This document shows, piece by piece, positions 2,349 to 43,817 of a stretch of DNA of 64,000 nt. Source of the stretch: Eledone cirrhosa (taxonomy: Eukaryota). The notes beneath the pieces were generated by a model. That model searched no databases and was not told the origin of the DNA. It worked only from the letters and a program-made list of their open reading frames with translations. A program made the position numbers and the translations under genes. The stretch spans positions 220,720,001-220,784,000 of the forward strand of contig OZ024743.1 of assembly GCA_964016885.1 (NCBI GenBank), in the 5' to 3' direction. How positions within the stretch are numbered: the stretch's first letter is position 1; the number at the start of each line of letters is the position of its first letter.

Positions 2349-2852
2349 CGTTTCTGAATTTGTTTAGCAAGATTCTTTATCTGAAAACGTGTGTTGAAAC
2401 CGATATTGTTATACTTTGAGAGGGTCATGTTGCCGATTTAGGAATTTATAAATTTCCGGTTGGTTGGTTGGTTCCACAACCAAACGATTGTTCATATATT
2501 GTCAATTCTTTCGCCACACATTCTGTGACCTCTTCAGTAACTGGGGATTCCTTTCTTTGTTTTTGTGCCTCTCCTTTGTTCTGTCCTACGCCATCTTGTC
2601 AAAAACAAGATGGCGTAGGACAGAACAAAGGAGAGGCACAAAAACAAAGAAAAGAATCCCAGTTACTGAAGAGGTCACAGAATGTGTGACGAAAGAACAT
2701 TGACAATATATGAACAATCGTTTGGTTGTGGAACCAACCAACCAACCGGAAATTTATAAATTCCTAAATTTATAAATTGAATTTATAATAAATTGAAGTG
2801 AAAGCAACTGGTGCGTGTGTTTCTTATTGGCAACATGACCCTCCCAAAGTAT

Positions 2853-4352: not shown

Positions 4353-4733
4353 AGAATCACAATAAACAACCATGAAACATACACTATAACAACGAAGTCA
4401 TCGATATTCACTCCTACACCCTTTACTCAAAGATAATGTTGAGTAGTAAAACAGTTTTAAATAATTCTCAGAATAAAAACAAGCTCATATTTATTGCTTC
4501 CTGAACTAAATTATGCATCATTGAAACTACTTTATACTCGCTTTTAAGTTTTTCTTTCTCTCATTCTATAGTTTTTGTCTATTTTATTGTTTTCGGTACG
4601 CAAATTTATTCATGTTAAATCGTTATAATATTGTTTTGGTCAAATATAAACAAACAAACACACACATACACAAACGCAAACACACACTCATTTATATATA
4701 TATATATATACATACATATATATACATACGTAC

Positions 4734-4768
<35 letters not shown>

Positions 4769-4775
4769 TACATAT

Positions 4776-4828
<53 letters not shown>

Positions 4829-4855
4829 CATACATATACATACATACAGACACAG

Positions 4856-4906
<51 letters not shown>

Positions 4907-5004
4907 GTGGTGGAACACTGGAAGGTAATATCCGTAGTGGTAGAGCACTCAGTCCGTGGGACGAGTTAGGTAGAAGTGGTTACACAACAGTTAGTTCACC
5001 ATAC

Positions 5005-5042
5005 CGAGAACAATTGTTTCACCTTAGCGGATCCTCAGCTCG
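5005..5042 (-). ncRNA. Minimal type I hammerhead ribozyme
   Basis: Minus strand: CGAG-CTGAGGA-T-CC-GCTAA-GG-T-GAAA-CAATTG-T-T-CTCG; intact core, palindromic stem III (ACAATTGT), 4-bp stem I, short stem II. Confidence 0.75.
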
Positions 5043-5203
5043 TAAAGGGCATGGTTATAGGAACAGGAAGTACAACCGTACGAACGCGCATGCGCAGAAA
5101 CCCGGTCACCTCACACATGCAATACTAGAATGCGTGTGAGAGGTGTAAGCGAGATAACTGCGAAAGTCCGAAAATTTTTAGTTGAAAATAAAATTACAAG
5201 GAA

Positions 5204-5922
5204 TCAGTCCGGAGCTTTGTAGTTATGCAATAGGTGTTTGGTGACGTGTGGACAACATGTGAAAAATTCATTTCTCGTGTTTAGGCAATCACTATTGCGT
5301 TATCTCTTTAGAATAGTTATTCGTTCGCAATACATAAGCCACACGTCGGATTTCCCCTTGCGTATGGCTTGGACTTAGTGATGGCTTTCCATTGGATGGA
5401 ATAGTCTATACTTGAGTCCTTGAGGGACCATACGTGGCTCGCGAGTCTCGTGGATGAACGTCTGTCCGGGTACCTGAAGGTAGACTGGTGGTTCAGGAAA
5501 CGTTCCTTAAATCGGCCCTCCGCCATGCCCACATAGGATTTGACCTCCTGTGGTTCGTTTGGTCGGTTGGAAGTGACCACAGCTTCATAAATTACAGCTG
5601 GTGTGTTGCATTGCTGTTGAAGGAGGCAAGCTTCGGGCTTACGGCAAGAGCACCCTGGCGGGGTGTTGCTCCTAGGGCTGCTGGTGATGTGGGCCTTCAT
5701 GTTCTTAGCGCAAGAGTATCTTAGTTTAACTTTGTGTCGGTTAAAGATGAACCGGTATTTATGACCTATGGGGAAGTGTCTATCTAAGAGGGCTAGAAAT
5801 TATTTTCCTACATTGGATTTAACGTTGAGTGAGAAGGGAGGAGAGAACCAGATAGTTTATCTATTGTTGCGCTTACTTTTCTTAATGGTGTTGTTGCTAG
5901 TGGGAGAGTAGGTGATAGGTTG
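5204..5922 (-). pseudogene. PLE polyprotein C-terminus: RT-EN linker plus GIY-YIG endonuclease, disrupted
   Basis: Minus translation: [47 protein letters not shown]...CSCRKPEAC...VIYEAVV...SYVGMAEGRFKERFLNH...SKPY...CGLC, then after a 1-nt frameshift LNTRNEFFTCCPHVTKHLL...*; several stops. Confidence 0.85.
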
Positions 5923-6142
5923 TTACTTAAATATAAGTATGTATACGTACATACATATATGTATACAGACGTACAGTAGTATGTATATATATATACATAC
6001 ATGCACACATATATATATATGTACGTATGGATTCACCGAACATTTATTATAATGCTCGGTGTGTTTGTAAACAAACATCCCGAATTAAGCCGTACAGTGT
6101 CTAGCAACCATCGTTGCTCATTTGTTCAACACTGACAAAGGA

Positions 6143-6185
6143 ACGTTGTACTAGTTTCAAGCTTATTAGCTATCGTCAGCAACGT
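6143..6185 (-). ncRNA. Minimal type I hammerhead ribozyme
   Basis: Minus strand: ACGTTG-CTGACGA-T-AGCT-AATA-AGCT-T-GAAA-CTAG-T-A-CAACGT; perfect 6-bp stem I, GUA cleavage triplet, palindromic stem III ACTAGT. Confidence 0.85.
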
Positions 6186-6309
6186 ATACCCACTCGATAT
6201 GCAAATTAGGCTGCTCAGCCGTTAATATGCATAAGGAAAGTATATAGCCGTTAATATGCATGAGAAAAGTATATACTTTCAGACGTTCAACCATCTGGCA
6301 GGAAGGTAT

Positions 6310-6352
6310 ACGTTGCTGACGATAGCTAATAAGCTTGAAACTAGTACAGCGT
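6310..6352 (+). ncRNA. Minimal type I hammerhead ribozyme
   Basis: ACGTTG-CTGACGA-T-AGCT-AATA-AGCT-T-GAAA-CTAG-T-A-CAGCGT; the one difference from the other arm keeps pairing as G-U. Confidence 0.85.
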
Positions 6353-7603
6353 TGCTTTGTCAGTGTTGAACAAATGAGCAAAGATGGTTGCTAGACACTG
6401 TACGGGTTAATTCGGGATTTTTGTTTACAAACACACCGAGCATTATAATAAATGTTCGGTGAATCCATACGTACATATATATATGTGTGCATGTATGTAT
6501 ATATATATACATACTACTGTACGTCTGTATACATATATGTATGTATGTATACATACTTATATTTAAGTAACAGCCGTACTAAGAGTGAGAAATGAAATTT
6601 CATTTCATTTTTTTTGTTTATATATATTATAGTAGGTAAAGTCAATTTTTTAAAATTTATTTTGAAACTTTTTCATTATTTGCTAAACCTTGTTTATATA
6701 TATATATATATATATAGTCGCATATATGTTATAGAATGCCGTTAGCTTCTTGCTAAAACAATCTCTATACGTCTCATATATATATATATACCGGTAAATA
6801 AACTTTTCAAATAATCTTTTTTGTTATCGTTTTTTATTCTTTATCGCTTTCTCATTCCTGATTTAATTCCTTCTTTATTCCGTTTTGCTCCTTTGTATTC
6901 CTTTGTTTTTATTGTATATATTTGAATATTTCAACATTTCATAATATATTTATAAAATATTTATAAGATTTTATTTTAAATATATTTTATTTTAAAAATA
7001 TTTCATCTTATGTAGGATACGAAATGCTAAATGTCCTGTTCAACTATGAATTTACTGATTTCAACACACAGTTATATACGCCGCATGACAGTACATACCC
7101 ATGCATGATAGCATGTTAAAGAGGACACGATAACAAACACCACAAGAGACTACCTGAAAAGAATATCATATTTTGAAATAAAGAGTTGAAAATATTTAGG
7201 TTACATGCTGAAGACAATAGGTTATTGTCATGAATGGACTCAGTAAGCTATAGTAAAAGTGTGTTGCAGTCACAGGGAAATATGGACGATATTTGTTGGC
7301 AAACCCATTAATCAATTTAAGTCTAGCATGGTCAAAAATGACTCCAGATACCCACATATTGAATAACTGCTTCAAACAATTAACATATTGAATCGACGTT
7401 TACAAGAAAGCTAGAGGAAACAAAGTAGTACTACCAGCATATGCTAAACGAACACATGCCACAATGAATGCGTCTCTGTCGTTGAACCATATCAACGACC
7501 ATATAATATTTCTTGTGCAACCTCTATTTAAATGTAAAATACACTCTATTATGTAATAACACAATCCTGTTCATTCCTCTGTGAGTGTGTGTGTGTGTGT
7601 GTG

Positions 7604-26297: not shown

Positions 26298-29200
26298 CCC
26301 AACCACTTTAGCTCCATATAACCAACACAGAACAATCTCCCCCACGCCACTTTACCTCCATATAACCAACACAGAACAATCTCCCCCACACCACTTTACC
26401 TCCATATAACCAACACAGAACAATCTCCCCCACACCACTTTACCTTCATATAACCAACACAGAACAATCTCCCCCACACCACTTTACCTCCATATAACCA
26501 ACACAGAACAATCTCCCCCACACCACTTTACCTCCATATAACCAACACAGAACAATCTACCCACACCACTTACCTCCATATAACCAACACAGAACAATCT
26601 CCCCCACGCCACTTTACCTCCATATAACCAACACAGAACAATCTCCCCCACACCACTTTACCTCCATATAACCAACACAGAACAATTTCCCCCACACCAC
26701 TTCACCTCCATATAACCAACACAGAACAATCTCCCCCACACCACTTTACCTCCATATAACCAACACAGAACAATCTACCCACACCACTTACCTCCATATA
26801 ACCAACACAGAACAATCTCCCCCACGCCACTTTACCTCCATATAACCAACACAGAACAATCTCCCCCACACCACTTTACCTCCATATAACCAACACAGAA
26901 CAATTTCCCCCACACCACTTCACCTCCATATAACCAACACAGAACAATCTCCCCCACACCACCTTACCTCCATATAACCAACACAGAACAATCTCCCCCA
27001 CACCACTTTACCTTCATATAACCAACACAGAACAATTTCCCCCACACCACTTTACCTCCATATAACCAACACAGAACAATCTCCCCCACACCACTTTACC
27101 TTCATATAACCAACACAGAACAATTTCCCCCACACCACTTACCTCCATATAACTAACACAGAACAATTTCCCCCACACCACTTTACCTTCATATAACCAA
27201 CACAGAACAATTTCCCCCACACCACTTACCTCCATATAACTAACACAGAACAATCTCCCCCACACCACTTTACCTTCATATAACCAACACAGAACAATTT
27301 CCCCCACACCACTTACCTCCATATAACTAACACAGAACAATTTCCCCCACACCACTTTACCTTCATATAACCAACACAGAACAATTTCCCCCACACCACT
27401 TACCTCCATATAACTAACACAGAACAATTTCCCCCACACCACTTTACCTCCATATATACAACACAGAACAATCTCCCCCACACCACTTTACCTCCATATA
27501 ACCAACACAGAACAATCTCCCCCACATCACTTTACCTTCATATAACCAACACAGAACAATCTCCCCCACACCACTTTACCTCCATATAACCAACACAGAA
27601 CAATCTCCCCCACACCACTTTACCTCCATATAACCAACACAGAACAATCTCCCCCACACCACTTTACCTTCATATAACCAACACAGAACAATTTCCCCCA
27701 CACCACTTACCTCCATATATACAACACAGAACAATTTCCCCCACACCACTTTACCTCCATATAACCAACACAGAACAATCTCCCCCACACCACTTTACCT
27801 CCATATAACCAACACAGAACAATCTCCCCCACATCACTTTACCTTCATATAACCAACACAGAACAATCTCCCCCACACCACTTTACCTCCATATAACCAA
27901 CACAGAACAATCTCCCCCACACCACTTTACCTCCATATAACCAACACAGAACAATCTCCCCCACACCACTTTACCTCCATATAACCAACACAGAACAATC
28001 TCCCCCACACCACTTTACCTCCATATAACCAACACAGAACAATCTCCCCCACACCACTTTACCTCCATATAACCAACACAGAACAATCTCCCCCACACCA
28101 CTTTACCTTCATATAACCAACACAGAACAATCTCCCCCACACCACTTTACCTCCATATAACCAACACAGAACAATCTCCCCCACACCACTTTACCTCCAT
28201 ATAACCAAGACAGAACAATCTCCCCCACACCACTTTACCTCCATATAACCAACACAGAACAATCTCCCCCACACCACTTTACCTTCATATAACCAACACA
28301 GAACAATCTCCCCCACACCACTTTACCTCCATATAACCAACACAGAACAATCTCCCCCACACCACTTTACCTCCATATAACCAACACAGAACACTTTCTC
28401 CCACACCACTTTACCTCCATATAACCAACACAGAACAATCTCCCCCACACCACTTTACCTCCATATAACCAACACAGAACAATCTCCCCCACACCACTTT
28501 ACCTTCATATAACCAACACAGAACAATTTCCCCCACACCACTTTACCTCCATATAACCAACACAGAACAATCTCCCCCACACCACTTTACCTTCATATAA
28601 CCAACACAGAACAATCTCCCCCACACCACTTTACCTCCATATAACCAACACAGAACAATCTCCCCCACACCACTTTACCTCCATATATACAACACAGAAC
28701 AATCTCCCCCACACCACTTTACCTCCATATAACGAACACACAACAATTTCCCCCACACCACTTTACCTACATATAACGAACACACAACAATTTCCCCCAC
28801 ACCACTTTACCTCCATATAACCAACATAGAACAATTTCCCCCACACCACTTTACCTCCATATAACCAACACAGAACAATCTCCCCCAAACCACTTTACCT
28901 CCATATAACCAACACAGAACAATCTCCCCCACACCACTTTACCTCCATATATACAACACAGAACAATTTCCTCCACACCACTTTACCTCCATATAACGAA
29001 CACACAACAATTTCCCCCACACCACTTTACCTCCATATAACCAACATAGAACAATTTCCCCCACACCACTTTACCTCCATATAACCAACACAGAACAATC
29101 TCCCCCAAACCACTTTACCTCCATATAACCAACACAGAACAATCTCCCCCACACCACTTTACCTCCATATATACAACACAGAACAATTTCCCCCACACCA

Positions 29201-32200
29201 CTTTACCTCCATATAACCAACACAGAACAATCTCGCCCACACCACTTACCTCCATATATACAACACAGAACAATTTCCCCCACACCACTTTACCTCCATA
29301 TAACGAACACACAACAATTTCCCCCACACCACTTTACCTCCATATAACCAACATAGAACAATTTCCCCCACACCACTTTACCTCCATATAACCAACACAG
29401 AACAATCTCCCCCACACCACTTTACCTCCATATAACCAACACAGAACAATCTCCCCCAAACCACTTTACCTCAATATAACTAACACAGAACATCCCCCAC
29501 ACCACTTAACCTCCATTTAACTAACACAGAATAATTTCCCCCGCACCTGTTCACCTCCATATAACCAACACAGAACAATCTCCCCCACACCACTTTACCT
29601 CCATATAACCAACACAGAACAATCTCCCCCACACCACTTTACCTCCATATAACTAACACAGAACAATTTCCTCCACACCACTATACCTCCATATAACCAA
29701 CACAGAACAATCTCCCCCACACCATTTTACCTCCATATAACCAACACAGAACAATCTCCCCCACACCACTTTACCTCTACATAACTAACACAGAACAATC
29801 TCCCCCACACCACTTTACCTCCATATAACTAACACAGAACAATTTCCCTTACACCATTTTACCTCCATATAACCAACACAAAACAATTTCCCCACACCAC
29901 TTTACCTCCATATAACCAACACAGAACAACCTCCCACAAACCACTTTACCTCTATATAACCAACACAGAACAACCTCCTCCACACCACTTTACCTCCATA
30001 TAACCAACACAGAACAATCTCCCCCACACCACTTTACCTCCATATAACCAACACAGAACAATCTCCCCCACACCACTTTACCTCCATATAACCAACACAG
30101 AACAATCTCCCCCACACCACTTTACCTCCATATAACTAACACAGAACAATCTCCCCCACACCACTTTACCTCCATATAACCAACACAGAAAATCTCCCCC
30201 TTACCTCATATAACCAACACAGAACAATCTCCCCCACACCAATTTACCTCCATATAACTAACACAGAACAATCTCCCCCACACCACTTTACCTCCATATA
30301 ACCAACACAGAAAATCTCCCCCTTACCTCATATAACCAACACAGAACAATCTCCCCCACACCAATTTACCTCCATATAACCAACACAGAACAATCTCCCC
30401 CACACCACTTTACCTCCATATAACTAACACAGAACAATCTCCCCCACACCACTTTACCTCCATATAACCAACACAGAACAACCTCCCCCACACCATGTTA
30501 CCTCCATATAACTAACACAGAACAATCTACCCACACCACTTACCTCCATATAACCAACACAGAACAATCTGCCCCACACCACTTTACCTCCATATAACTA
30601 ACACAGAACAATCTCCCCCACACCACTTTACCTCCATATAACCAACACAGAACAATCTCCCCCAAACCACTTTACCTCCATATAACTAACACAGAACAAT
30701 CTCCCCCACACCACTTTACCTCCATATAACCAACACAGAACAATCTCCCCCACACCACTTTACCTCCATATAACCAACACAGAACAATCTCCCCCACACC
30801 ACTTTACCTCCATATAACTAACACAGAACAATCTCCCCCACACCACTTTACCTCCATATAACCAACACAGAACAATTTCCCCCACACCACTTTACCTCCA
30901 TATAACCAACACAGAACAATCTCCCCCACAACACTTTACCTCCATATAACTAACACAGAACAATTTCCCCCACACCACTTTACCTCCATATAACCAACAC
31001 AGAACAATCTCCCCCACACCACTTTACCTCCATATAACCAACACAGAACAATCTCCCCCACACCACTTTACCTCCATATAACCAACACAGAACAATCTCC
31101 CCCACACCACTTTACCTCCATATAACCAACACAGAACAATCTCCCCCACACCACTTTACCTCCATATAACCAACACAGAACAATTTCCCCCACACCACTT
31201 TACCTCCATATAACCAACACAGAACAATTTCCCCCACACCACTTTACCTCCATATAACCAACACAGAACAATCTGCCCCACACCACTTTACCTCCATATA
31301 ACCAACACAGAACAATTTCCCCCACACCACTTTACCTCCATATAACCAACACAGAACAATCTCCCCCACACCACTTTACCTCCATATAACCAACACAGAA
31401 CAATCTGCCCCACACCACTTTACCTCCATATAACCAAGACAGAACAATCTCCCCCACACCACTTTACCTCCATATAACCAACACAGAACAATCTCCCCCA
31501 CACCACTTTACCTCCATATAACCAACACAGAACAATCTCCCCCACATCACTTTACCTCCATATAACCAACACAGAACAATTTCCCCCACACCACTTTACC
31601 TCCATATAACCAACACAGAACAATTTCCCCCACACCACTTTACCTCCATATAACCAACACAGAACAATCTGCCCCACACCACTTTACCTCCATATAACCA
31701 ACACAGAACAATCTCCCCCACACCACTTTACCTCCATATAACCAACACAGAACAATCTCCCCCACACCACTTTACCTCCATATAACCAACACAGAACAAT
31801 CTCCCCCACACCACTTTACCTCCATATAACCAACACAGAACAATCTCCCCCACACCACTTTACCTCCATATAACCAACACAGAACAATTTCCCCCACACC
31901 ACTTTACCTCCATATAACCAACACAGAACAATTTCCCCCACACCACTTTACCTCCATATAACCAACACAGAACAATCTGCCCCACACCACTTTACCTCCA
32001 TATAACCAACACAGAACAATTTCCCCCACACCACTTTACCTCCATATAACCAACACAGAACAATCTCCCCCACAGCACTTTACCTCCATATAACCAACAC
32101 AGAACAATCTGCCCCACACCACTTTACCTCCATATAACCAAGACAGAACAATCTCCCCCACACCACTTTACCTCCATATAACCAACACAGAACAATCTCC

Positions 32201-35200
32201 CCCACACCACTTTACCTCCATATAACCAACACAGAACAATCTCCCCCACATCACTTTACCTCCATATAACCAACACAGAACAATTTCCCCCACACCACTT
32301 TACCTCCATATAACCAACACAGAACAATTTCCCCCACACCACTTTACCTCCATATAACCAACACAGAACAATCTGCCCCACACCACTTTACCTCCATATA
32401 ACCAACACAGAACAATCTCCCCCACACCACTTTACCTCCATATAACCAACACAGAACAATCTCCCCCACACCACTTTACCTCCATATAACCAACACAGAA
32501 CAATCTCCCCCACACCACTTTACCTCCATATAACCAACACAGAACAATCTCCCCCACACCACTTTACCTCCATATAACCAACACAGAACAATTTCCCCCA
32601 CACCACTTTACCTCCATATAACCAACACAGAACAATTTCCCCCACACCACTTTACCTCCATATAACCAACACAGAACAATCTCCCCCACACCACTTTACC
32701 TTCATATAACCAACACAGAACAATTTCCCCCCACACCACTTTACCTCCATATAACCAACACAGAACAATCTCCCCCACACCACTTTACCTCCATATAACC
32801 AACACAGAACAATCTCCCCCACGCCACTTTACCTCCATATAACCAACACAGAACAATCTCCCCCACACCACTTTACCTCCATATAACCAACACAGAACAA
32901 TCTCCCCCACACCACTTTACCTCCATATAACCAACACACAACAATCTCCCCCACACCACTTTACCTCCATATAACTAACACAGAACAATTTCCTCCACAC
33001 CACTTTACCTCCATATAACCAACACAGAACAATTTCCCCCACACCACTTACCTCCATATAACCAACACAGAACAATCTCCCCCACACCACTTTACCTCCA
33101 TATAACCAACACAGAACAATCTCCCCCACACCACTTTACCTCCATATAACCAACACAGAACAATCTCCCCCACACCACTTTACCTCCATATAACCAACAC
33201 AGAACAATCTCCCCCACACCACTTTACCTCCATATAACCAACACAGAACAATCTCCCCCACACCACTTTACCTCCATATAACCAACACAGAACAATTTCC
33301 CCCACACCACTTTACCTCCATATAACCAACACAGAACAATTTCCCCCACACCACTTTACCTCCATATAACCAACACAGAACAATCTCCCCCACACCACTT
33401 TACCTTCATATAACCAACACAGAACAATTTCCCCCACACCACTTTACCTCCATATAACCAACACAGAACAACCTCCCCCACACCACTTTACCTCCATATA
33501 ACCAACACAGAACAATCTCCCCCACGCCACTTTACCTCCATATAACCAACACAGAACAATCTCCCCCACACCACTTTACCTCCATATAACCAACACACAA
33601 CAATCTCCCCCACACCACTTTACCTCCATATAACTAACACAGAACAATTTCCTCCACACCACTTTACCTCCATATAACCAACACAGAACAATTTCCCCCA
33701 CACCACTTACCTCCATATAACCAACACAGAACAATCTCCCCCACACCACTTTACCTCCATATAACTAACACAGAACAATTTCTCCCCCACACCACTTTAC
33801 CTCCATATATACAACACAGAACAATCTCCCCCACCGCACTTTACCTCCATATAACCAACACAGAACAATCTCCCCCACACCACTTTACCTCCATATAACC
33901 AACACAGAACAACCTCCCCCACACCACTTTACCTCCATATAACCAACACAGAACAACCTCCCCCACACCACTTTACCTCCATATAACCAACACAGAACAA
34001 TCTCCCCCACACCACTTTACCTCCATATAACCAACACAGAACAATCTCCCCCACACCACTTTACCTCCATATAACCAACACAGAACAATCTCCCCCACAC
34101 CACTTTACCTCCATATAACCAACACAGAACAATCTCCCCCACACCACTTTACCTCCATATAACCAACACAGAACAATCTCCCCCACACCACTTTACCTCC
34201 ATATAACCAACACAGAACAATCTCCCCCACATCACTTTACCTCCATATAACCAACACAGAACAATCTCCCCCACACCACCTTACCTCCATATAACCAACA
34301 CAGAACAACCTCCCACAAACCACTTTACCTCTATATAACCAACACAGAACAATTTCCCCCACACCACTTTACCTCCATATAACCAACACAGAACAATCTC
34401 CTCCACACCACTTTACCTCCATATAACCAACACAGAACAATCTCCCCCACACCACTTTACCTCCATATAACCAACACAGAACAATCTCCCCCACACCACT
34501 TTACCTCCATATAACCAACACAGAACAATCTCCCCCACACCACTTTACCTCCATATAACTAACACAGAACAATCTCCCCCACACCACTTTACCTCCATAT
34601 AACCAACACAGAAAATCTCCCCCTTACCTCATATAACCAACACAGAACAATCTCCCCCACACCAATTTACCTCCATATAACTAACACAGAACAATCTCCC
34701 CCACACCACTTTACCTCCATATAACCAACACAGAACAACCTCCCCCACACCATGTTACCTCCATATAACTAACACAGAACAATCTACCCACACCACTTAC
34801 CTCCATATAACCAACACAGAACAATCTGCCCCACACCACTTTACCTCCATATAACTAACACAGAACAATCTCCCCCACACCACTTTACCTCCATATAACC
34901 AACACAGAACAATCTCCCCCAAACCACTTTACCTCCATATAACTAACACAGAACAATCTCCCCCACACCACTTTACCTCCATATAACCAACACAGAACAA
35001 TCTCCCCCACACCACTTTACCTCCATATAACCAACACAGAACAATCTCCCCCACACCACTTTACCTCCATATAACTAACACAGAACAATCTCCCCCACAC
35101 CACTTTACCTCCATATAACCAACACAGAACAATTTCCCCCACACCACTTTAACTCCATATAACCAACACAGAACAATCTCCCCCACAACACTTTACCTCC

Positions 35201-38200
35201 ATATAACTAACACAGAACAATCTCCCCCACACCACTTTACCTCCATATAACCAACACAGAACAATCTCCCCCACACCACTTTACCTCCATATAACCAACA
35301 CAGAACAATCTCCCCCACACCACTTTACCTCCATATAACCAACACAGAACAATTTCCCCCACACCACTTTACCTCCATATAACCAACACAGAACAATTTC
35401 CCCCACACCACTTTACCTCCATATAACCAACACAGAACAATTTCCCCCACACCACTTTACCTCCATATAACCAACACAGAACAATCTCCCCCACACCACT
35501 TTACCTCCATATAACCAACACAGAACAATCTCCACCACACCACTTTACCTCCATATAACCAACACAGAACAATCTCCCCCACACCACTTTACCTCCATAT
35601 AACCAACACAGAACAACCTCCTCCACACCACTTTACCTCCATATAACCAACACAGAACAATCTCCCCCACATCACTTTACCTTCATATAACCAACACAGA
35701 ACAACCTCCTCCACACCACTTTACCTCCATATAACCAACACAGAACAATCTCCCCCACACCACTTTACCTCCATATAACCAACACAGAACAACCTCCTCC
35801 ACACCACTTTACCTCCATATAACCAACACAGAACAATCTCCCCCACACCACTTTACCTTCATATAACCAACACAGAACAATTTCCCCCACACCACTTTAC
35901 CTCCATATAACCAACACAGAACAACCTCCCCCACACCACTTTACCTCCATATAACCAACACAGAACAATCTCCCCCACGCCACTTTACCTCCATATAACC
36001 AACACAGAACAATCTCCCCCACACCACTTTACCTCCATATAACCAACACAGAACAATCTCCCCCACACCACTTTACCTCCATATAACCAACACACAACAA
36101 TCTCCCCCACACCACTTTACCTCCATATAACTAACACAGAACAATTTCCTCCACACCACTTTACCTCCATATAACCAACACAGAACAATCTCCCCCACAC
36201 CACTTTACCTCCATATAACTAACACAGAACAATCTCCCCCACACCACTTTACCTCCATATATACAACACAGAACAATCTCCCCCACCGCACTTTACCTCC
36301 ATATAACCAACACAGAACAATCTCCCCCACACCACTTTACCTCCATATAACCAACACAGAACAATCTCCCCCACACCACTTTACCTCCATATAACCAACA
36401 CAGAACAATCTCCCCCACACCACTTTACCTCCATATAACCAACACAGAACAATCTCCCCCACGCCACTTTACCTCCATATAACCAACACAGAACAATCTC
36501 CCCCACACCACTTTACCTCCATATAACCAATACAGAACAATTTCTCCCCCACCGCACTTTAGCTCCATATAACCAACACAGAACAATCTCCCCCACACCA
36601 CTTTACCTCCATATAACCAACACAGAACAATCTCCCCCACACCACTTTACCTCCATATAACCAACACAGAACAATCTCCCCCACGCCACTTTACCTCCAT
36701 ATAACCAACACAGAACAATCTCCCCCACACCACTTTACCTCCATATAACCAATACAGAACAATTTCTCCCCCACCGCACTTTAGCTCCATATAACCAACA
36801 CAGAACAATCTCCCCCACACCACTTTACCTCCATATAACCAACACAGAACAATTTCCCCCACACCACTTTACCTCCATATAACCAACACAGAACAATCTC
36901 CCCCACACCACTTTACCTCCATATAACCAACACAGAACAATCTCCCCCACACCACTTCACCTCCATATAACCAACACAGAACAATCTCCCCCACACCACT
37001 TTACCTCCATATAACCAACACAGAACAATCTCCCCCACACCACTTTACCTCCATATAACCAACACAGAACAATTTCCCCCACACCACTTTACCTCCATAT
37101 AACCAACACAGAACAATCTCCCCCACACCACTTTACCTCCATATAACCAACACAGAACAATCTCCCCCACACCACTTTACCTCCATATAACCAACACAGA
37201 ACAATCTCCCCCACACCACTTTACCTCCATATAACCAACACAGAACAATTTCCCCCACACCACTTTACCTCCATATAACCAACACAGAACAATCTCCCCC
37301 ACACCACTTTACCTCCATATAACCAACACAGAACAATCTCCCCCACACCACTTTACCTCCATATAACCAACACAGAACAGTCTCCCCCACACCACTTTAC
37401 CTCCATATAACCAACACAGAACAATCTCCCCCACACCACTTTACCTCCATATAACCAACACAGAACAATTTCTCCCCCACACCACTTTACCTCCATATAA
37501 CCAACACAGAACAATCTCTCTCCCACACCACTTTCCCTCCATATACCCAACACAGAACAATCTCCCCCACACCACCTTACCTCCATATAACCAACACAGA
37601 ACAATCTCCCCCACACCACCTTACCTCCATATAACCAACACAGAACAATTTCTCCCACACCACTATATTTCCATATAACCAACACAGAACAACCTCCCCC
37701 ACACCATGTTACCTCCATATAACCAACACAGAACAATTTCCCCCACACCACTTTACCTCCATATAACAAACACAGAACAATTTCCCCCACACCACTTACC
37801 TCCATATAACCAACACAGAACAATTTCCCCCACACCACTTTACCTCCATATAACCAACACAGAACAATTTCCCCCACACCACTTTACCTCCATATAACCA
37901 ACACCGAACAATTTCCCCCACACCACTTTACCTCCATATAACCAACACAGAACAATTTCCCCCACACCACTTACCTCCATATAACCAACACAGAACAATC
38001 TCCACCACACCACTTTACCTCCATATAACCAACACAGAACAATCTCCCCCACACCACTTTACCTCCATATAACCAACACAGAACAATTTCTCCCACACCA
38101 CTTTACCTCCATATAACCAACACAGAACAATTTCCCCCACACCACTTTACCTCCATATAACCAACACAGAACAATTTCCCCCACACCACTTTACCTCCAT

Positions 38201-41200
38201 ATAACCAACACAGAACAATTTCCCCCACACCACTTTACCTCCATATAACCAACACAGAACAATTTCTCCCACACCACTTTACCTCCATATAACCAACACA
38301 GAACAATTTCCCCCACACCACTTTACCTCCATATAACCAACACAGAACAATCTCCCCCACACCACTTTACCTCCATATAACCAACACAGAACAATTTCCC
38401 CCACACCACTTTACCTCCATATAACCAACACAGAACAATTTCCCCCACACCACTTTACCTCCATATAACCAACACAGAACAATTTCCCCCACACCACTTT
38501 ACCTCCATATAACCAACACAGAACAATCTCCCCCACACCACTTTACCTCCATATAACCAACACAGAACAATCTCCCCCACACCACTTTACCTCCATATAA
38601 CCAACACAGAACAATTTCCCCCACACCACTTTACCTCCATATAACCAACACAGAACAATTTCCCCCACACCACTTTACCTCCATATAACCAACACAGAAC
38701 AATCTCCCCCACACCACTTTACCTCCATATAACCAACACAGAACAATTTCCCCCACACCACTTTACCTCCATATAACCAACACAGAACAATCTCCCCCAC
38801 ACCACTTTACCTCCATATAACCAACACAGAACAATTTCTCCCACACCACTTTACCTCCATATAACCAACACAGAACAATCTCCCCCACACCACTTTACCT
38901 CCATATAACCAACACAGAACAATCTCCCCCACACCACTTTACCTCCATATAACCAACACAGAACAATTTCTCCCATACCACTTTACCTCCATATAACCAA
39001 CACAGAACAATCTCCCCCACACCACTTTACCTCCATATAACCAACACAGAACAATTTCTCCCACACCACTTTACCTCCATATAACTAACACAGAACAATC
39101 TCCCCCACACCACTTTACCTCCATATAACCAACACAGAACAATCTCCCCCACACCACTTTACCTCCATATAACCAACACAGAACAATTTCCCCCACACCA
39201 CTTACCTCCATATAACCAACCCAGAACAATTTCCTCCACACCACTTTACCTCCATATAACCAACACAGAACAGTCTCCCCCACACCACTTTACCTCCATA
39301 TAACCAACACAGAACAATCTCCCCCACACCACTTTACCTCCATATAACCAACACAGAACAATCTCCCCCACACCACTTTAACTCCATATAACCAACACAG
39401 AACAATCTCCCCCACACCACTTTAACTCCATATAACCAACACAGAACAATTTCTCCCACACCACTTTACCTCCATATAACCAACACAGAACAATTTCTCC
39501 CACACCACTTTACCTCCATATAACCAACACAGAACAATCTCCCCCACACCACTTTACCTCCATATAACCAACACAGAACAATTTCTCCCACACCACTTTA
39601 CCTCCATATAACTAACACAGAACAATCTCCCCCACACCACTTTACCTCCATATAACCAACACAGAACAATCTCCCCCACACCACTTTACCTCCATATAAC
39701 CAACACAGAACAATTTCCCCCACACCACTTACCTTCATATAACCAACCCAGAACAATTTCCTCCACACCACTTTACCTCCATATAACCAACACAGAACAG
39801 TCTCCCCCACACCACTTTACCTCCATATAACCAACACAGAACAATCTCCCCCACACCACTTTAACTCCATATAACCAACACAGAACAATCTCCCCCACAC
39901 CACTTTAACTCCATATAACCAACACAGAACAATTTCCCCCACACCACTTTACCTCCATATAACCAACACAGAACAATCTCCCCCACACCACTTTAACTCC
40001 ATATAACCAACACAGAACAATCTCCCCCACACCACTTTAACTCCATATAACCAACACAGAACAATTTCCCCCACACCACTTTACCTCCATATAACCAACA
40101 CAGAACAATCTCCCCCACACCACTTTACCTCCATATAACCAACACAGAACAATTTCTCCCACACCACTTTACCTCCATATAACCAACACAGAACAATCTC
40201 CCCCACACCACTTTACCTCCATATAACCAACACAGAACAATTTCTCCCACACCACTTTACCTCCATATAACTAACACAGAACAATCTCCCCCACACCACT
40301 TTACCTCCATATAACCAACACAGAACAATCTCCCCCACACCACTTTACCTCCATATAACCAACACAGAACAGTCTCCCCCACACCACTTTACCTCCATAT
40401 AACCAACACAGAACAATCTCCCCCACACCACTTTAACTCCATATAACCAACACAGAACAATCTCCCCCACACCACTTTACCTCCATATAACCAACACAGA
40501 ACAATCTCCCCCACACCACTTTACCTCCATATAACCAACACAGAACAATCTCCCCCACACCACTTTAACTCCATATAACCAACACAGAACAATCTCCCCC
40601 ACACCACTTTAACTCCATATAACCAACACAGAACAATCTCCCCCACACCACTTTAACTCCATATAACCAACACAGAACAATCTCCCCCACACCACTTTAA
40701 CTCCATATAACCAACACAGAACAATCTCCCCCACACCACTTTAACTCCATATAACCAACACAGAACAATCTCCCCCACACCACTTTAACTCCATATAACC
40801 AACACAGAACAATCTCCCCCACACCACTTTAACTCCATATAACCAACACAGAACAATCTCCCCCACACCACTTTACCTCCATATAACCAACACAGAACAA
40901 TTTCCCCCACACAACTTTACCTCCATATAACCAACACAGAACAATCTCCCCCACACCACTTTACCTCCATATAACCAACACAGAACAATCTCCCCCACAC
41001 CACTTTACCTCCATATAACCAACACACAACAATCTCCCCCACACCACTTTACCTCCATTAACGAACACAGAACAATCTCCCCCACACCACTTTACCTCCA
41101 TATAACCAACACAGAACAATCTCCCCCACACCACTTTACCTCCATATAACCAACACAGAACAATTTCCCCCACACCACTTTACCTCCATATAACCAACAC

Positions 41201-43817
41201 AGAACAATTTCCCCCACACCACTTTACCTCCATATAACCAACACAGAACAATCTCCCCCACACCACTTTACCTCCATATAACCAACACAGAACAATCTCC
41301 CCCACACCACTTTACCTCCATATAACCAACACAGAACAATCTCCCCCACACCACTTTACCTCCATATAACCAACACAGAACAATCTCCACCACACCACTT
41401 TACCTCCATATAACCAACACAGAACAATTTCCCCCACACCACTTTACCTTCATATAACCAACACAGAACAATCTCCCCCACACCACTTTACCTCCATATA
41501 ACCAACACAGAACAATCTCTCTACCACACCACTTTACCTCCATATAACCAACACAGAACAATTTGTCCCCCACACCACTTTACCTCCATATAACCAACAC
41601 AGAACAATCTCCACCACACCAATTTACCTCCATATAACCAACACAGAACAATCTCCCCCACACCACTTTACCTCCATATAACCAACACAGAACAATCTCC
41701 CCCACACAACTTTACCTCCATATAACTAACACAGAACAATCTCCCCCACACCACTTTACCTCCATATAACCAACACAGAACAATCTCCCCCACACAACTT
41801 TACCTCCATATAACTAACACGGAACAATCTCCCCCACACCACTTTACCTCCATATAACCAACACAGAACAATTTCCCCCACACCACTTTACCTCCATATA
41901 ACCAACACAGAACAATTTCCCCCACACCACTTTACCTCCATATAACCAACACAGAACAATTTCCCCCACACCACTTTACCTCCATATAACCAACACAGAA
42001 CAATTTCCCCCACACCACTTTACCTCCATATAACCAACACAGAACAATTTGTCCCCCACACCACTTTACCTCCATATAACCAACACAGAACAATCTACCC
42101 ACACCACTTTACCTCCATATAACCAACACAGAACAATTTGTCCCCCACACCACTTTACCTCCATATAACTAACACAGAACAATCTCCCCCACACCACTTT
42201 ACCTCCATATAACTAACACAGAACAATCTCCCCCACACCACTTTACCTCCATATAACCAACACAGAACAATCTCCACCACAACACTTTACCTCCATATAA
42301 CCAACACAGAACAATCTCCCCCACACCACTTTACCTCCATATAACCAACACAGAACAATCTCCACCACACCACTTTACCTCCATATAACCAACACAGAAC
42401 AATCTCCCCCACACCACTTTACCTCCATATAACCAACACAGAACAATTTCCCCCACACCACTTTACCTCCATATAACCAACACAGAACAATCTCCCCCAC
42501 ACCACTTTACCTCCATATAACCAACACAGAACAATCTCCCCCACACCACTTTACCTCCATATAACTAACACAGAACAACCTCCCCCACACCACTTTACCT
42601 CCATATAACCAACACAGAACAATTTCCCCCACACCACTTTACCTCTATATAACCAACACAGAACAATTTCCCCCACACCACTTTACCTTCATATAACCAA
42701 CACAGAACAATCTCCCCCACACCACTTTACCTCCATATAACCAACACAGAACAATCTCCACCACACCACTTTACCTCCATATAACCAACACAGAACAATC
42801 TCCACCACACCACTTTACCTCCATATAACTAACACAGAACTCTTTCTCCCACACCACTTTACCTCCATATAACCAACACAGAACAACCTCCCCCACACCA
42901 CTTTACCTCCATATAACCAACACAGAACAATTTCTCCCCCACACCACTTTACCTCCATATAACCAACACAGAACAATTTCTCCCCCACACCACTTTACCT
43001 CCATATAACCAACACAGAACAACCTCCCCCACACCACTTTACCTCCATATAACCAACACAGAACAATTTCTCCCCCACACCACTTTACCTCCATATAACC
43101 AACACAGAACAATTTCTCCCCCACACCACTTTACCTCCATATAACCAACACAGAACAACCTCCCCCACACCACTTTACCTCCATATAACCAACACAGAAC
43201 AATTTCTCCCCCACACCACTTTACCTCCATATAACCAACACAGAACAATCTCTCTCACACCACTTTACCTCCATATAACCAACACAGAACAATTTCCCCC
43301 ACACCACTTTACCTCCATATAACCAACACAGAACAATTTCCCCCACACCACTTTACCTCCATATAACCAACACAGAACAATTTCCCCCACACCACTTTAC
43401 CTCCATATAACCAACACAGAACAATCTCTCTCACACCACTTTACCTCCATATAACCAACACAGAACAATTTCCCCCACACCACTTTACCTCCATATAACC
43501 AACACAGAACAATTTCCCCCACACCACTTTACCTCCATATAACCAACACAGAACAATTTCCCCCACACCACTTTACCTCCATATAACCAACACAGAACAA
43601 TCTCTCTCACACCACTTTACCTCCATATAACCAACACAGAAAATCTCCCCCACACCACTTTACCTCCATATAACCAACACAGAACAATCTCCCCCACACC
43701 ACTTTACCTCCATATAACCAACACAGAACAATCTCCCCCACACCACTTTACCTCCATATAACCAACACAGAACAATCTCCCCCACACCACTTTACCTCCA
43801 TTAAACGAACACAGAAC
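26298..43817. repeat. 44-bp minisatellite/satellite array, ~400 units
   Basis: Consensus CCACTTTACCTCCATATAACCAACACAGAACAATCTCCCCCACA; period 44 (26347 to 26391); about one G per unit on plus strand. Confidence 0.98.
43796..43817 (-). other. Candidate 22-nt microexon at the array boundary
   Basis: Minus strand: gattaatttcttgtttcatcacag|GTTCTGTGTTCGTTTAATGGAG|gtaaagtgg. Confidence 0.3.

Follow-up and report, generated by a model that had tools for sequence, protein, structure and literature searches.

Three hammerhead ribozymes in Eledone cirrhosa where a broken Penelope-type piece adjoins two inverted copies of a non-coding repeat present 10,000 times

Among the closest described relatives of the motifs reported here are the minimal hammerhead ribozymes of Penelope-like elements (PLEs): ribozymes of type I, borne in pseudo-LTRs (pLTRs) and palindromic at 15.2-16.2/loop 3 (Cervera and de la Pena 2014, PMC4209133). 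These ribozymes are expected to act as dimers and to have low activity, and opposite-strand pairs lying 100-700 bp apart were noted in the same work. PLE insertions are known to carry a tail at one end (PMC8557442; PMC3846280), and this tail has been explained in vitro by two start sites for the reverse transcriptase (RT) (PMC11167929). A second group, the animal non-LTR retrozymes, is made up of non-coding units that are short and tandemly arranged, carry one type I hammerhead apiece and reach thousands of copies in genomes where PLEs co-exist (Cervera and de la Pena 2020, PMC7229834; Li et al. 2026, 10.64898/2026.07.22.740005). Mobilisation of retrozymes by PLEs is argued in the accessible parts of these two papers from co-occurrence and pLTR homology, and not from insertion footprints.

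We analysed a window of 64,000 nucleotides (64 kb) of contig OZ024743.1 (GCA_964016885.1, forward strand, positions 220,720,001 to 220,784,000), which sits within a chromosome-scale contig of a 3.0-Gb genome; coordinates count from its first letter. Three CUGANGA/GAAA cores with helices I-III are present, at 5005-5042 and 6143-6185 on the minus strand and at 6310-6352 on the plus strand, as the sequence-only reading of this DNA had proposed. A type I descriptor (CUGANGA..GAAA..UH, helix I of at least 4 pairs, helix III closing pair), written after the motifs had been seen, returned exactly these three from the whole window, against a mean of 0.065 motifs and a maximum of 2 in 200 dinucleotide shuffles. 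Searches with the covariance models of Rfam 15 gave no hammerhead match for E values up to 5-10; what they returned was noise from microsatellites and hairpins. Exact matches to the 30-nt core of the first motif (hammerhead A) occur 2,546 times genome-wide and the exact 31-nt core of the other two (hammerhead B) 10,046 times, while the reversed control of each occurs 0 times. All three hammerheads are genuine; they come from two repeat families, A and B, with no relationship to each other. The three occur together because a broken Penelope-type piece (family A) adjoins two inverted copies of a non-coding repeat present 10,000 times (family B). The features of the locus are as follows.

4640..4906, no strand: (TA)n/(CA)n microsatellite adjoining the 3' end of family A; presumed target site
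4907..5923, minus: family A, a 5'-truncated PLE with the end of the RT thumb/linker, a GIY-YIG endonuclease, the 3' pLTR and a tail
4907..4973, minus: optional tail of A, ~65 nt; the window copy has the long (L) end
5005..5042, minus: hammerhead A; helix I of 4 bp plus a distal helix, helix II of U-U plus 2 bp with a GCUAA loop, helix III of 2 bp plus AAUU; predicted cut 5009/5008 after GUU
5204..5922, minus: ORF remnant of A, interrupted by premature stops (near 5859, 5802 and 5301) and by one frameshift, near 5325
5921..5923, minus: A/B joint, a shared ACA (3-nt microhomology)
5921..6190, minus: left arm of family B, a partial monomer starting 5 nt before helix I
6143..6185, minus: hammerhead B, minus copy; helix I of 6 bp plus a bulged distal helix, helix II of U-U plus 3 bp with a UAAUAA loop, helix III of 1 bp plus CUAG; predicted cut 6149/6148 after GUA
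6188..6621, plus: right arm of family B, close to a full monomer; its end is of the long (L) type and runs into (TA)n
6310..6352, plus: hammerhead B, plus copy; predicted cut 6346/6347 after A6346 (GUA)

All three hammerheads have a U-U at the base of helix II and a palindromic helix III (ACAAUUGU or ACUAGU), and the cut predicted for the plus copy falls after A6346; the sequence-only reading was right on each of these points. Its term "minimal" is a misnomer, because helix II of the 2014 motif is long (7-8 bp in S. mansoni) and preceded by an unpaired base, and a G10.1-C11.1 pair is conserved (PMC4209133). Helix II in the window is 3-4 bp long and closed by U-U, outside that published definition, and we regard the motifs as canonical-like rather than minimal. 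Close matches exist in the axolotl, where HHR_Amex2 has the same U-U mismatch at the base of helix II and where helix III of HHR_Amex1, as in B, consists of 1 bp and a palindromic tetraloop (PMC7229834). U-U closure on differing helix II stems was seen in at least three further motif families among the fetched loci. Canonical type I hammerheads have a tertiary contact between loop 1 and loop 2; the B hammerhead has a bulged helix I and a loop 2 ending in A. Folds of the single motifs were no better than those of shuffles (z of -0.65, -0.56 and 0.09), and their minimum-energy folds differ from the active core, which is expected for dimer-type motifs and weighs neither way.

Among copies, the B core changes less often than its flanks (6/599 against 145/5,391, p=0.009, the flanks being unfiltered for subfamily variants), whereas the corresponding difference for A (3/359 against 191/10,067) is not significant (p=0.17). 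Copies within a family are 94-100% alike, so within-family covariation is uninformative. The minus copy of hammerhead B is the commonest variant of its family, identical over 60 nt to 14 of 43 other copies, and the plus copy has a private change at 6354, in distal helix I.

Family A, whose 3' pLTR contains hammerhead A, is on its motifs a Penelope-like element of Hydra-clade character. Published Hydra-clade PLEs combine a GIY-YIG endonuclease at the C terminus with DKT, a CxCX5C linker, no CCHH, and CxxC and CxH near the C terminus; they target (TA)n and carry a hammerhead in the pLTR (PMC8557442). Further marks of the clade are an N-terminal RWK motif and a length below 3 kb. In A, DKT replaces DKG (LSDKTN in copies L126 and L128, EKT in L134; the region is missing from the window copy), the linker reads CSCRKPEAC, the endonuclease lacks CCHH, with no cysteines between VIY and YVG, and the C-terminal motifs are CGLC and, in a shifted frame, CPH. 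A also inserts at (TA)n and has a pLTR with a hammerhead. Its inverted, 5'-truncated arms, with a tail often at one end only, are likewise Hydra-like; its tail of ~65 nt compares with the 30-40 bp given for PLEs. A mollusc family, Hydra-1_Obim, is listed in the supplement at 2,507 bp with a (TA)n target (Craig et al. 2021, PMC8557442).

The ORF remnant noticed in the sequence-only reading is indeed of GIY-YIG type, on the minus strand and PLE-derived. Its longest open stretch runs from 5799 to 5320. A Pfam search with a 160-aa frame of A gave no match, and in the ESM Atlas the A frame falls in a 0.95 cluster, of whose members 19% carry GIY-YIG. In other A copies the sequence extends 5' of 5923 to the thumb and core motifs of the RT, and the window copy is therefore 5'-truncated. 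Such truncation is usual for A: we found no full-length copy among 109 A loci, and the 5' ends of 80 loci (taken in listed order, all from contig C1) abut an inverted A arm in 48 cases, TA in 6, a direct A piece in 3, B in 2 and other DNA in 21. Near-private substitutions in the window copy amount to ~2.1% (21/1,013 sites).

Family B fits a non-coding tandem retrozyme, putatively of the non-LTR type. Its two motifs in the window are the arms of one head-to-head inverted repeat (~5921-6190 and 6305-6575). Same-strand cores elsewhere are spaced 419-453 nt apart in 18 of 23 pairs, giving a unit of ~427 nt, and arrays hold up to five cores among the matches listed. The longest ATG ORF of B is 38 aa. 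PLE-like ORFs found at 3/60 and 3/29 B loci are those of neighbouring families, and three that were inspected are discontinuous with B. The left arm shows 0/156 substitutions against the copy majority over 6035-6190, and the right arm has a 29-nt internal duplication near 6218-6275. In its short non-coding tandem units, its type I hammerhead in each, its thousands of copies and the PLEs that accompany it, B resembles animal non-LTR retrozymes (PMC7229834; 10.64898/2026.07.22.740005); it differs from retrozymes as the accessible parts of those papers present them in having two fixed 3' ends at (TA)n, a ~60-nt tail and short and long head-to-head arms. DNA comparison of A with B gave no significant similarity (best E 0.81), and in this comparison, limited to family A, B did not resemble A's pLTR. 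Of the earlier proposal that two unrelated PLE pLTRs meet here, the lack of relationship is upheld. The idea that B is itself the pLTR of a second coding PLE is not supported, given its tandem ~427-nt units and its lack of coding capacity.

A and B share an insertion footprint. Both end beside (TA)n at two fixed sites ~60-65 nt apart; in A, copies stop near 4973 (short) or at 4907 (long). Inverted pairs almost always combine one end of each kind. For A, 80 loci were fetched, 1 duplicate was removed, 74 were typed and 41 had an inverted end; after 3 short/intermediate pairs had been dropped, 37 of the remaining 38 were short+long and none was long+long. For B, where 89 loci were used and 2 short/intermediate pairs dropped, 24 of 25 pairs were short+long and 1 was long+long. 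A similar organisation is documented for PAc, a Poseidon element of a different clade, whose AT-rich target is cut and extended on both strands, and in which two internal RT start sites define the tail and a hammerhead lies near it (Frangieh et al. 2024, PMC11167929). The in vitro start sites of PAc are described as alike on both strands; nearly every genomic A or B pair, by contrast, combines a short end with a long one. We found no report of a footprint of this kind on a retrozyme in the literature searched, most subscription papers being outside its reach.

This footprint suggests how B moves. A PLE reverse transcriptase/endonuclease would make each insertion by nicking (TA)n and laying down two converging cDNAs, one from each start site, with B as a passenger of the enzyme. 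Because B carries the Penelope insertion footprint, we consider it very likely that B is mobilised by PLE enzymes.

How A and B came to adjoin at this locus is a separate question. The joint (5921-5923) lies ~10 nt beyond B's short end and ~45 nt before its long end. It has a single match genome-wide, allowing up to 1 mismatch, and an amplified A/B chimera is accordingly rejected. We think it probable that the locus records two separate insertions at one (TA)n tract: a truncated A and a head-to-head B pair, either of which may have come first, would have lost the bases between them and been joined through the 3-nt microhomology. The main alternative, a template jump within one integration, which the sequence-only reading had offered, holds that a left cDNA passed from A RNA to B RNA at the ACA and met a right, B-primed cDNA. 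The microhomology and the lack of TA at the joint are as such a jump would leave them, the divergence of A resembles that of B's right arm, template jumps have been proposed for PLEs (PMC3846280), and cross-family head-to-head joints do exist (L098, L164, L124). We nevertheless find it unlikely, since the outer ends of the window structure are long (A) and long (B), a combination seen in 0/38 A and 1/25 B pairs, and this favours two insertions with a deletion. Three typed hybrids, moreover, comprise 2 short+long and 1 short+short, as by chance, and the same geometry arises with target loss at other loci. At L048 (675-1815), a third-family inverted pair without its last ~41 nt is followed, through a TGT microhomology, by a 5'-truncated B dimer, which is the window geometry in other families; fusions of a 5' end to a neighbouring repeat missing its terminal 0-40 bases are common, with examples at L069, L084, L103, L105 and L048. 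A and B often meet because they share the (TA)n target: B lies within 3.5 kb at 11 of 79 A loci, and at L201 and L094 the two adjoin through a TA remnant of 9-19 nt. At L111 a head-to-head hybrid of A with a fourth (TA)n family has two short-type ends (the end type of the partner family being set by analogy with L006), which indicates that such joints can arise from two events. Some observations sit less easily with two insertions. B's left arm passes its usual short end by 10 nt; were A second, this would require a rare long+long B pair (1/25) or the deletion of ~420 nt more, and were B second, an off-site start, of which 282 overlapping matches were counted against 2,632 exact short ends. 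The divergences (21/1,013 for A, 9/697 for B, p=0.26, the microsatellite parts of B being unreliable) do not order the events. At L098, L124 and L048 the outer ends are short+long, and one hybrid event would explain each structure just as well. L098 (G000:C1:77443634-77447134) is the strongest candidate for an insertion of this sort: a long-end B dimer stands head-to-head with a short-end A arm through a 2-nt microhomology with no TA; L124 is a head-to-head joint of A with the fourth (TA)n family, and at L164 (~1906), where B meets another Hydra-like PLE, the ends could not be typed.

Nested insertion, also suggested earlier, would place B in the ORF of a longer A whose upstream part was lost later. 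A does break inside its ORF exactly at B, and a left arm free of private changes over 156 nt is compatible with a younger B; yet neither upstream A DNA nor RT similarity occurs elsewhere in the 64-kb window, so that nesting inside the ORF is not seen, B's right end adjoins TA rather than A, and a truncated 5' end is the usual state of A, all of which makes nesting quite improbable. That two collapsed repeats were misassembled into this joint is extremely improbable: high-copy repeats can be misjoined, but nothing at the locus points directly to an error, the window lies inside a chromosome-scale contig, both the A and the B parts carry private changes, and similar microhomology joints recur at other loci. 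Among the contigs and reads listed for six runs, which may be of other individuals or species, none bridged the joint, an outcome that is given no weight here. A different proposal gives the arrangement a purpose. The predicted minus-strand cuts at 6149/6148 (GUA) and 5009/5008 (GUU) leave 1,140 nt between them, and the sequence-only reading envisaged a read-through minus-strand RNA that could release this fragment of ~1.1 kb. In a functional cassette of this kind, both hammerheads would cut the RNA and the product would perhaps circularise. Both cores are intact and on a common strand, and similar amphibian hammerheads cleave at 6-22% per hour as monomers (PMC7229834). The helix III palindromes, which are of the dimer type as the sequence-only reading held, pair only as homodimers, however (-6.4 and -4.8 kcal/mol), and not as a heterodimer (+0.9). 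For RNA that starts upstream of 6575, folding predicts that the antisense right arm takes up 258 of the 266 bases of the left arm, and it gives the closing pair of helix I in the B minus copy a probability of 0.0. This value rises to 0.24-0.27 only for starts inside the spacer; that of hammerhead A is at most 0.006 in long transcripts. With no heterodimer and the B copy buried in a predicted 260-bp fold-back, release of the 1.1-kb RNA is unlikely, since two incompatible ribozymes would have to cleave as monomers or in trans, and a selected product is improbable because the joint is unique and the ORF broken. The PAc hammerhead, in addition, required its protein for cleavage (PMC11167929). We therefore judge the cassette highly improbable. 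On the two-insertion reading, the A-B arrangement would have no function of its own. Any activity of the hammerheads would belong to their parent transcripts, tandem pLTRs for A and multimers for B, and cleavage would likely proceed mainly as homodimers through the palindromic helix III. B multimers would be cut to ~427-nt monomers, which could circularise.

Other repeats in and around the window were recorded alongside this locus. A third (TA)n-targeting family forms a head-to-head inverted pair at 2350-2857, with its long end left and its short end right; its hammerhead-like cores at 2509-2537 (minus) and 2666-2694 (plus) both differ, close to the cut site, from those of intact copies such as L171. 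Loci L002-L201 (649 kb) contain many more type I hammerhead families, some with a long helix II and a TATATA, TGCGCA or CCACTGG helix III and others closed by U-U, and hammerheads of PLEs and retrozymes seem to abound in this genome. At L092, L097, L026, L142 and L148, copies of A or B have close by them ORF pieces of other Hydra-like PLE families, whose linkers are long and of low complexity. At 26298-43817 there is a 17.5-kb tandem array (44-bp unit, ~399 copies, 95% matches), and at 13736-13822 a near-perfect ~87-nt hairpin, which scores only below threshold against miRNA models and is probably another fold-back repeat.

Overall, the locus is ordinary repeat debris that brings to light new members of two known kinds of element, whose two hammerheads together have more than 12,000 exact copies in the genome. 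Published work proposes that PLEs move animal retrozymes and leaves the mechanism to be shown, and the footprint of B bears on that proposal, since B and a co-resident PLE have in common their target, a two-site tail and an inverted-arm structure. It is possible, though doubtful, that a Hydra-clade PLE enzyme writes every complete B insertion as two converging cDNAs, one per fixed start site, and that the cross-family joints (the window locus, L098, L164 and L124) are single events in which an RT dimer copied two RNAs; if so, this would be direct genomic evidence both for the mobilisation of retrozymes by PLEs and for asymmetric priming on the two strands. The near-invariant pairing of short with long ends offers a simple, countable test of PLE priming on both strands, and ~10,000 copies of a U-U-closed hammerhead provide a resource for tests of cleavage and of circular RNA.
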